A DNA stretch of 4,102 nucleotides from a virus (taxonomy: Duplodnaviria > Heunggongvirae > Uroviricota > Caudoviricetes): IMG/VR virus record IMGVR_UViG_2698536387_000013. One strand, written 5' to 3'. A program made the position numbers. Below are positions 3,001-4,102 of the stretch, in pieces (within the stretch, counting starts at the first letter, position 1; each line of letters starts with the position of its first letter).

Positions 3001-4102
3001 CAGTGGTGAGAGCGAGCGACTCATAATCGCCAGGTCGCTGGTTCAAATCCAGCAAGGGCCACCATCACATACCGCCATTAGCTCATCAGGAAAGAGCGCC
3101 AGCTTTCGAAGCTGGTTGCGCGGAGTTCGGGTCCCCGAAGGCGGTCCATTATCTGTATCCTGCGTTGTTAGCTCAGCCGGACAGAGCAATTGCCTTCTAA
3201 GCAATCGGTCACTGGTTCGAATCCAGTACAACGCGCCACACTTATTTTCCCTGGCTCGCTTTTGCGGGCCTTTTTTTTAAATGTCTCACAATTCAGGCGG
3301 TTGACTGTTGTCTGGTTTGCGGGGAGTTTGTTAAAAGAAACTGGCATGGTGAATCCCCCTGTGCGGAGGGGCAATCAGCGAGTAGGTATATGGGATAATC
3401 GCGGATTCAGGTAATTCACCGGGAGGCACCCGGCACCATGCAATGGCACATAGCGCCACTCTCCAGCCCCTCTCCGGAGGGGCTTTCTTATGGACAAAAA
3501 AAGCCCGCGCAGGGAGCGCGGGCGGCAAGGAATAAACAACAAAACGTGAAGTAATATTTCAGCTGGCGAATAATATCCGACAGTAATCACTCTGCGCAAT
3601 AGCGCGGCCTTTTTCGTATTGCGGGCTGTTGTCTCTCTTCTGCCATTGTCCTGTAACTTCCGGACTTCAGCCCGCTCCTCATTTTACTCACAATATTATC
3701 CCGGCCGGGAGGATTCATGGCATTTAAACACTATGATGTTGTCAGGGCGGCGTCGCCGTCAGACCTTGCGGAAAAGCTGACACACAAACTGAAAGAGGGC
3801 TGGCAGCCATACGGCGGACCGGTTGCCATTACGCCGTACACACTGATGCAGGCGGTGGCTATTGAAGGAGATCCACAGGTCGGCCCTTCATCTAAGCCGG
3901 ATTGGTACTACGTCATCGTACTTGCCGGGCAGTCCAATGCCATGGCTTACGGTGAAGGGCTTCCGCTGCCGGATTCATACGATGCTCCGGATCCGCGCAT
4001 TAAACAGCTGGCGCGCCGCAGTACAGTTACGCCGGGTGGGGCTGCCTGCAGATATAACGATATTATTCCGGCCGACCACTGCCTGCATGATGTGCAGGAT
4101 AT

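Follow-up and report, generated by a model that had tools for sequence, protein, structure and literature searches.

What occupies the space between the transfer RNA (tRNA) genes and nanS-p in a prophage that has the gene order of a Shiga toxin (Stx) locus and carries no stx genes? We addressed this question in a 4,102-nucleotide (nt) stretch of caudoviral DNA (IMG/VR record IMGVR_UViG_2698536387_000013), hereafter the window, in which positions 3239–3716 separate a tRNA cluster from nanS-p. The initial annotation had described this interval as an empty toxin slot, 480 bp of non-coding DNA. Our analysis gives a different answer. The interval is very probably the standard intergenic module that runs from the moron site to nanS-p in lambdoid prophages of enterohaemorrhagic Escherichia coli, here in a prophage of the stx-negative Sp4/psrA type, and it holds two convergent small RNA (sRNA) genes, one of the STnc100 family and one of the EcOnc08/21/42 type. 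What the analysis shows directly is homology, membership in RNA families, exact matches to probes, terminators, breakpoints and prevalence.

Judged by its sequence, the window is the late-regulatory region of a stx-negative lambdoid prophage of the Sakai Sp4/psrA type. It was 99.03% identical to Sp4 of E. coli O157:H7 Sakai across all 4102 nt, with 29 mismatches and 2 gaps, and 99.6% identical to the best-matching locus in a complete genome (L001). Open reading frames (ORFs), Pfam matches and RefSeq annotation gave the gene order RusA, Q, CPBP protease, TrmB-like pseudogene, psrA, ileZ-argN-argO, interval 3239–3716 and nanS-p. The features in and around the interval are as follows:

3253–3278, plus strand: intrinsic terminator of the tRNA cluster, stem 3253–3270 and T8 3271–3278 (terminator scan)
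3279–3282, no strand: module joint, seat of a 1.3-kb stx2 promoter–stx2AB cassette in Stx2 phages (blastn, alignments)
3308–3337, plus strand: predicted sigma-70 promoter of the plus-strand sRNA, with −35 TTGTCT (3308–3313), an 18-nt spacer and extended −10 TGtTAAAAG (3329–3337)
3315–3495, plus strand: STnc100-family sRNA gene, EcOnc05 homologue (Rfam RF02076), with predicted core RNA 3344–3492 and terminator stem 3465–3484
about 3496–3676, minus strand: convergent sRNA gene of the EcOnc08/21/42 type (probe, homologue in enteropathogenic E. coli, terminator scan)
3496–3530, minus strand: parts of that gene, namely U-tract 3496–3502, terminator stem 3503–3523 and seed CCUUGCC 3524–3530
3592–3615, plus strand: third hairpin with T-run (CTGCGCAATAGCGCGG CCTTTTTCG), inside the minus-strand sRNA gene (terminator scan, alignment)
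3686–3681 or 3723–3695, minus strand: candidate promoter elements, −10 TAAAAT or ATGCCA-17-GATAAT, respectively (promoter scan)
3707–3712, plus strand: ribosome-binding site GGGAGG of nanS-p

The position of stx is a joint of a few base pairs

To the left of the joint, blastn against the Stx2 phage Sp5 (L004) matched window positions 2986–3279, comprising the tRNA block and its terminator, with Sp5 positions 2763–3057 at 93% identity. To the right, positions 3282–3372 matched Sp5 positions 4390–4480, beginning 42 nt past the stx2B stop codon, and positions 3592–3814 aligned at 91%. The 1332 bp between the two breakpoints in Sp5 comprise the stx2 upstream region, stx2A, stx2B and 41 nt. A second Stx2a phage gave the same breakpoint picture. 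The Stx1 phage VT1-Sakai has no tRNAs upstream; its homology to the window sets in at that right-hand boundary, and identity is 98% from 3413 on. Because the homology to Sp5 ends at 3279 and restarts at 3282, the slot is the joint 3279|3282.

These alignments, made against both stx1 and stx2 prophages as had been proposed, found the flanks homologous and upheld the synteny first noticed with the Stx-phage toxin locus (tRNA cluster, sRNA module, nanS-p). The absence of stxAB was equally clear: no stxA or stxB ORF was found anywhere in the window, which has no homology to Sp5 positions 3058–4389. The description of the prophage as a stx-negative relative of Stx phages agrees with the 93% identity of the tRNA block to Sp5 and with the 98% identity of 3413–3750 to VT1-Sakai. 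Two other parts of the initial description have to be revised. The slot is not the whole interval 3239–3716, since the position of stx in Stx2 phages corresponds to a joint of 2–4 bp, and the interval is not empty, as it contains an STnc100 match of 123.6 bits together with a convergent minus-strand sRNA gene.

One could still regard the interval as a scar, an ancestral Stx phage having deleted stxAB and left 480 bp of decaying, functionless leftovers. In favour of this stand the genuine synteny with Stx phages, the existence of stx-negative phages whose backbone resembles that of 933W (phi296, TL-2011a and Nil3), and two private or rare small deletions in the interval of the window. However, approximately 435 of its 478 bp are also found in Stx1 and Stx2 phages, where they lie downstream of stxB, indicating that the interval is not the residue of a vacated toxin site. 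The alignment to Sp5 revealed no remnant of the stx2 promoter, coding sequence or 3′ flank at the joint, and the score against a structured-RNA model is hard to reconcile with decay. Prevalence was assessed in 5426 complete E. coli genomes with a 124-nt query spanning the joint at a coverage of at least 80%. The uninterrupted tRNA–sRNA joint was present in 1015 of them, and many of the carriers listed bear no O157:H7 or other Shiga toxin-producing E. coli (STEC) serotype label, which refers to the label only, stx status aside. We therefore consider a scar highly improbable. Recombination between the shared flanks would erase the trace of either a loss or a non-acquisition of stx.

The same arrangement is on record in stx-negative 933W-like phages, namely phi296/315/367, TL-2011a, the PPwrbA phages and Nil3. 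Among these Sepvirinae, vB_EcoP_phi296/315/367, TL-2011a and Nil3 have the tRNA cluster, the sRNA module and NanS without stx. The joint of Nil3 is identical to that of the window, whereas phi296 has 28 extra nt there. In these phages the tRNAs directly follow Q-tR′; the Q of the window is of another type, and 2.3 kb of cargo separates it from the tRNAs. In prophage PP6 of enteropathogenic E. coli (EPEC) E2348/69 (L007, NC_011601 1442500–1447500), ISEc13 lies between the tRNAs and the sRNA module, indicating that the joint also takes insertion sequences. Just two tRNAs are annotated in PP6, and the 5′ part of STnc100 has apparently been lost.

A plus-strand sRNA gene of the STnc100 family

The Rfam model RF02076 matched the plus strand at 3315–3495 over model positions 1–206, with 123.6 bits, a gathering score of 47 and E=8e-28. 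On this sequence evidence, the plus-strand gene is a member of the STnc100 family. Stx phages have the family past their toxin genes: behind stx1B it scored 176.7 bits in VT1-Sakai, and behind stx2B it scored 160.1 bits in Stx2_95 and 207.7 bits in Sp5. The score of the window lies below those of Sp5 and Sp15 (176.7); its gene measures 181 nt compared with 206–215 nt for the Stx-phage copies, and its central region is a different allele.

The minimum free energy fold of 3344–3492 (−59.2 kcal/mol, z=−1.96) reproduced the Rfam helices: the closing helix, the two internal hairpins (CCCCC/GGGGG and CCGGG/CCCGG) and the terminator can all form in the RNA of the window. In an alignment of six alleles, 38 pairs were predicted, with compensatory changes in 4. 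The reverse complement of the EcOnc05 Northern probe equals window positions 3373–3407 (35/35). Together with the minus-strand gene described below, this bears out the early suggestion of regulatory or small-RNA elements of the toxin locus that may persist in the interval.

Published work on other copies describes expression and effects of this family. Strain EDL933 has 11 STnc100 copies; for at least 10, RNA-seq read counts lie in the hundreds to thousands, and STnc100_4 was verified by Northern blot. Levels of fimZ and espA transcripts rose when sRNA103/EcOnc27, the copy of Stx2 phages, was overexpressed, and STnc100 has been seen in outer-membrane vesicles of STEC. A machine-learning study of 2025 ranked k-mers in the stx2a-linked copy of the module first among its predictors of haemolytic uraemic syndrome (PMC12711010). 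It is therefore worth recording allelic variants of the module, and the window has one.

At 3413/3414, in the STnc100 hairpin 3404–3418, the window lacks 10 nt (GCTGGTACTG) that are present in Sakai Sp4 and in the other aligned alleles, so that the stem of the hairpin shrinks from 8 to 5 bp and its loop from 9 to 5 nt. All full-coverage matches to 3372–3455 in the 5426 complete genomes were 89.4% identical, that is, with the 10 nt present, and the deletion allele itself had no full-length gap-free match among them. This allele is apparently private, unless it stems from a sequencing error. Near the same place, at approximately 3413, there is a mosaic breakpoint inside the sRNA gene: upstream of it the VT1-Sakai allele is too diverged for megablast, and beyond it the identity is 98%. 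Recombination appears to use the conserved core CACCGGGAGGCACCCGGCACCATGCA.

A convergent sRNA gene on the minus strand

The EcOnc08/21/42 Northern probe equals the plus strand at 3569–3603 (35/35), and hence detects an RNA of the minus strand. The region was 99% identical to the EPEC sRNA E2348C_1409.E2348C_1408.IGR (NC_011601 1444797–1444978, minus strand), the ends of which map to window positions 3496 and 3676. Pearl Mizrahi et al. (2021) described this sRNA as the homologue of EcOnc08/21/42 (PMC8550237). The identity of 99% extends over 3440–3730, and seed and terminator are the same; the EPEC copy differs in its setting, prophage PP6 with ISEc13. The minus-strand terminator of the window is strong, with the sequence GCCCGCGC-TCCCT-GCGCGGGC followed by U7 (3523–3496).

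RNA interaction by ligation and sequencing (RIL-seq) in EPEC linked the homologue to cfa (767 chimeras), dppA (197), tir and emrA, and the partners shared the motif GGCAAGG, which is complementary to CCUUGCC (PMC8550237). In the window, CCUUGCC lies at 3524–3530, directly 5′ of the minus-strand terminator. At a coverage of at least 80%, the minus-strand sRNA region was found in 958 of the 5426 genomes and in 52 phage records, including those of Stx1 and some Stx2a phages.

In the terminator loop, at 3515/3516, the window has a 1-nt deletion (GGGAGACGC to GGGAGCGC) relative to Sp4, Sp15 and EPEC PP6. This deletion is natural, as the copy in O157:H7 strain 493/89 is 100% identical over 3496–3690.

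Other identities for the minus-strand RNA were considered. AsxR (RF02703) and AgvB (RF02702) had no match in 3480–3730 at E≤10, nor in L001 at the gathering score, although AsxR was detected in Sp5 as a positive control (88.1 bits); both were rejected. A minus-strand match to OmrA-B reached 24 bits against a cut-off of 40, and those to suhB, anti-hemB, SorX and Esr41 were lower still. Since these matches were below gathering scores and driven by the terminator, they were taken as chance. HnrS (EcOnc10–12), considered since its paper mentions ECs1087, is located in Sp9, Sp10 and Sp12, not here.

The two genes correspond to the convergent pair of Sakai Sp4

Transcription, Hfq binding and targets are taken from the literature on near-identical copies. 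For Sp3, 4, 5, 9, 10, 11, 15 and 17, Tree et al. (2014) reported pairs of convergent sRNAs that are bound by Hfq and lie between a conserved phage ORF and the moron site that follows PR′ (PMC4104026). Their Table S2 lists for Sp4 EcOnc05 on the plus strand (1179806–1179914, about 222 nt) and, on the minus strand, EcOnc08 (1179938–1180010) and EcOnc21 (1180016–1180101), both about 271 nt. EcOnc05 and EcOnc08 passed 5/5 experiments of Hfq cross-linking and analysis of cDNA (CRAC) (PMC4104026).

The window has the same layout. Intrinsic terminators face each other at 3465–3484 (plus) and 3523–3503 (minus), the probes match opposite strands, and the pair sits downstream of Q and cargo and upstream of nanS-p. 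The minus-strand stem begins 19 nt past the end of the plus-strand stem, and the predicted 3′ ends are approximately 3 nt apart. A terminator scan over 2900–3800 found 6 terminator-like sites, compared with 0.9 ± 0.8 in shuffled sequence, and recovered the tRNA terminator (3253–3278) and the two GC-rich hairpins (3465–3484, plus; 3523–3503, minus) reported at the outset. The two hairpins are the back-to-back terminators of both sRNA genes.

The closest known system is thus EcOnc05/EcOnc08/EcOnc21 of Sakai Sp4 (PMC4104026), which occupies this locus in a prophage 99% identical to the window. Strands and order agree, both probes match 35/35, and the convergent terminators lie between the moron site and nanS-p. 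Compared with Sp4, the window is without 10 nt of the plus-strand RNA hairpin and 1 nt of the minus-strand terminator loop. EcOnc27 (sRNA103)/AsxR of Sp5/933W, downstream of stx2B, is likewise a convergent pair and is placed with respect to nanS-p as in the window, STnc100 at L004 4423–4628 (plus) being followed immediately by AsxR at 4630–4682 (minus). Homology covers the 5′-terminal 90 nt of the plus-strand gene (79%), and from 3592 onward the identity is 91%. Sp5 differs in having stx2AB at the joint and, as the minus-strand partner, the 53-nt anti-sRNA AsxR, whose sequence is unrelated to that of the window's RNA.

If the coordinates of Tree et al. equal those of NC_002695.2, the Hfq peaks fall on window positions ~3376–3474 (plus), 3498–3569 (minus) and 3575–3660 (minus). 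For Sp4, the positions of the probes and the ends of the RNAs agree with this assumption. EcOnc coordinates match NC_002695.2 at Sp3 and Sp4 and are ~137 nt lower at Sp5, where AsxR is listed at 1268494–1268542 and actually lies at 1268629–1268681 in NC_002695.2. Owing to this shift, a locus-specific offset is needed for mapping published peaks onto the current RefSeq sequence.

Predicted promoters and 5′ ends

Promoters, 5′ ends and function in the strain of the window are predictions. On the plus strand, the RNA would start at G3344, 7 nt past the −10 element. Five diverged alleles keep TTG(T/C/A)C(T/G), a distance of 17–18 nt and (TGt)TA(A/G)AA(A/G), while the sequence of the spacer diverges. 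The RNA-seq-estimated start of EPEC PasD2 (NC_011601 741157) aligns to G3344. We infer the plus-strand promoter from these features; it was absent from the output of a simple promoter scan. On the minus strand, either TAAAAT or ATGCCA-17-GATAAT could serve as the promoter, the 5′ end estimated in EPEC mapping to 3676.

PasD1 and PasD2 of EPEC and EcOnc13 of Sakai Sp3 share with the window the promoter layout and the 5′ end GCAUGGUGAAUCC..., and they lie directly upstream of a sialate esterase gene. The promoter and the 5′ 30 nt of PasD2 do align; its 3′ half is unlike that of the window, and the PasD seed UGUGAG has no counterpart, as no TGTGAG occurs in 3344–3492. There is no convergent partner at the PasD place, and PasD2 scored below the Rfam STnc100 gathering score. 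The third hairpin (3592–3615) aligns with the terminator of PasD2 (EPEC PP2, L006) and EcOnc13 (Sakai Sp3, L010). PasD-type genes appear to have the 5′ 30 nt of the STnc100 core, a different middle and then a terminator of the 3592–3615 type, and to be without ~150 nt, a segment with the terminator of STnc100 and the 3′ half of the minus-strand sRNA. A preprint of 2026 proposed a common ancestor for PasD and STnc100, and this layout would fit it.

Northern sizes gave no consistent plus-strand 5′ end and were rejected as a guide to it. The Sp3 homologue EcOnc13, predicted at 173 nt and running at about 187 nt, is a good fit, whereas EcOnc05 and EcOnc27 (about 235/247 nt, Sp5) run ~63–76 nt above the promoter-derived prediction. 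The Rfam STnc100 model begins 29 nt upstream of the predicted start at 3344. The oligonucleotide that the supplement assigns to EcOnc13 does not fit Sp3; it corresponds to the Sp15 allele, at a site 5′ of the predicted start.

Measured from the terminators, the long Northern species would reach back to 5′ ends at ~3280 here and ~28–40 nt past the stx2B stop in Sp5. This raises the speculative and rather unlikely idea that the toxin insertion point is the exact 5′ boundary of the sRNA module and not an arbitrary intergenic site. If so, a second isoform would be cut from upstream read-through, from the tRNA operon here and from the stx2AB mRNA in Stx2 phages, sRNA output would be coupled to cargo transcription, and the 10-nt hairpin deletion would be a natural variant within the mapped Hfq-CRAC peak region.

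Trans-acting sRNAs or insulating terminators

The module reads, in order, as the tRNA trailer with its terminator, the joint 3279–3282, the plus-strand sRNA gene, the minus-strand sRNA gene and the nanS-p ribosome-binding site. In the lysogen, each sRNA would be made from its own sigma-70 promoter, end at its own terminator and act in trans through Hfq-assisted base pairing, CCUUGCC of the minus-strand RNA pairing with GGCAAGG motifs such as those of cfa, dppA, tir and emrA according to the EPEC RIL-seq data. During lytic growth, Q-modified polymerase from PR′ would read through the three plus-strand terminators to nanS-p and the lysis genes.

Alternatively, the hairpins could be mainly cis-acting terminators or insulators of the late operon that, in the lysogen, shield nanS-p and the lysis genes from read-through of the tRNA and cargo promoters and that Q-modified polymerase overrides, the sRNAs being by-products. 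We regard this as possible, albeit clearly the less probable explanation. Three plus-strand terminators do stand in series between the tRNAs and nanS-p, in the path of late transcription from PR′. StxS provides a precedent for terminated late-region transcripts that were by-products and later gained function, and a published review calls the reason for the paired arrangement unclear. However, transcription of the plus strand cannot be insulated by a terminator that works on the minus strand. Hfq binds both RNAs abundantly, as seen in the CRAC experiments on EcOnc05 and EcOnc08 (PMC4104026), the minus-strand RNA has specific RIL-seq partners with a common motif, and the plus-strand promoter hexamers are conserved where the spacer between them diverges. 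An insulating role can, moreover, coexist with trans-acting sRNAs.

Several points weigh against our interpretation of the module as a pair of functional sRNA genes. The expression evidence, as we read it, stems from near-identical copies and not from the exact sequence of the window, and since the 10-nt deletion is unmatched in the 5426 genomes, the plus-strand RNA of the window could behave differently. The Northern sizes exceed the expected ones, at about 222 nt versus about 159 nt predicted for EcOnc05 and about 271 nt versus about 181 nt from the EPEC mapping for EcOnc08/21. The placement of the Hfq peaks assumes equal coordinates at Sp4 despite the offset of ~137 nt at Sp5. Finally, some EDL933 STnc100 copies have ribosome footprints, and a PHROG protein family covers a minus-strand ORF across 3168–3374.

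The RNA content of such a locus is already known: the Sp4-type locus of O157:H7 was mapped in 2014, revisited in EPEC in 2021 and covered by surveys in 2025–2026. What changes is the annotation. In lambdoid prophages, the stretch from the cargo site to nanS-p should be annotated neither as empty nor as a deletion scar but as the seat of two Hfq-dependent sRNA genes; a toxin cassette, if there is one, occupies a single joint upstream of both.

Coding potential of the interval

The ribosome footprints and the PHROG family raise the possibility of one or several small proteins encoded in the interval. Pfam was not matched by any of the six ORFs (38–74 aa) in or across 3239–3716. The minus-strand ORF 3168–3374 (68 aa; 59 aa from ATG) matched PHROG 27294, a family of unknown function, with E=1.2e-45, and RefSeq and phage records have "hypothetical protein" features here. 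A second candidate is a 38-aa ORF at 3438–3554, which is preceded by GGGAGG; the ribosome footprints on EDL933 copies would also suit a coding role. However, the PHROG ORF runs antisense to tRNA-Arg(TCT) for ~70 nt and spans the tRNA/sRNA joint, so we read it as an annotation artefact. As it spans the mosaic joint, it cannot exist in stx-positive phages, and PHROG 27294 looks like a propagated mis-annotation of non-coding DNA. The 38-aa ORF crosses the sRNA terminator and extends past the 3′ end of the RNA. The Prokaryotic Genome Annotation Pipeline (PGAP) calls the feature here an incomplete pseudogene, and the indels between alleles, one of 10 nt and one of 1 nt inside the 38-aa ORF, are not multiples of three. 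With the single PHROG match read in this way, the early statement that the interval has no credible ORF holds, and we give small proteins very little credence.

Genes flanking the module

The remaining features of the window are as follows:

32–295: RusA, 3′ part
285–656, plus strand: late antiterminator Q, homologue of Sakai ECs1084 (Pfam PF06530 Phage_antitermQ, 174.6 bits)
808–1626, plus strand: CPBP/CAAX intramembrane protease (Pfam Rce1-like, 70.6 bits; RefSeq)
about 1913–2152, plus strand: TrmB-like frameshifted pseudogene (RefSeq)
2247–2960, plus strand: AraC-type regulator psrA, homologue of ECs1087 (Pfam HTH_18 and HTH_AraC; RefSeq)
2989–3064, plus strand: ileZ, tRNA-Ile, anticodon CAT (ARAGORN; Rfam tRNA, 72.5 bits; RefSeq)
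3072–3148, plus strand: argN, tRNA-Arg(TCG) (ARAGORN; Rfam tRNA, 42.9 bits)
3162–3238, plus strand: argO, tRNA-Arg(TCT) (ARAGORN; Rfam tRNA, 70.1 bits)
3717–4102, plus strand: nanS-p from its ATG at 3717, first 128 codons, running off the window (Pfam DUF1737 at 3717–4100, 60.7 bits)

On the downstream side, the full-length homologue in L001 has the domains DUF1737, SASA and DUF6645, the architecture of NanS-p. Domain architecture therefore agrees with the first assignment of the downstream ORF, and its predicted product is of the NanS-p type, a prophage 9-O-acetyl sialate esterase.

The tRNA cluster is annotated in Sakai as ileZ1-argN1-argO1, and its terminator is conserved in alignments with the tRNA trailer of Stx2 phages. 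ARAGORN called the first tRNA Met(CAT), whereas RefSeq and the Sakai record have ileZ, tRNA-Ile, in agreement with the initial reading as Ile. Transfer RNAs of this kind, with the anticodon CAT, decode Ile once they carry the lysidine modification.

Q is annotated as antiterminator Q in both L001 and Sakai Sp4. It does not adjoin the tRNAs, as had been implied, because 2.3 kb of cargo with the CPBP protease, the TrmB-like pseudogene and psrA lies between them. The region 657–2246 is a second cargo site. PR′, qut and tR′ of the Q type of the window were not located. Promoter-like sites occur at 717–746 and 748–776, the CPBP/CAAX protease gene has its own terminator (1768–1783 with a T-run), and the TrmB-like gene ends at the terminator 2096–2113. 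ECs1087 is psrA, a prophage regulator of type III secretion that acts via gadE (PMC13502914). With psrA upstream of the tRNAs, the toxin-free prophage still holds virulence-regulatory cargo. The start codon of psrA differs among RefSeq models, PGAP records giving 237 aa and the Sakai record 195 aa.

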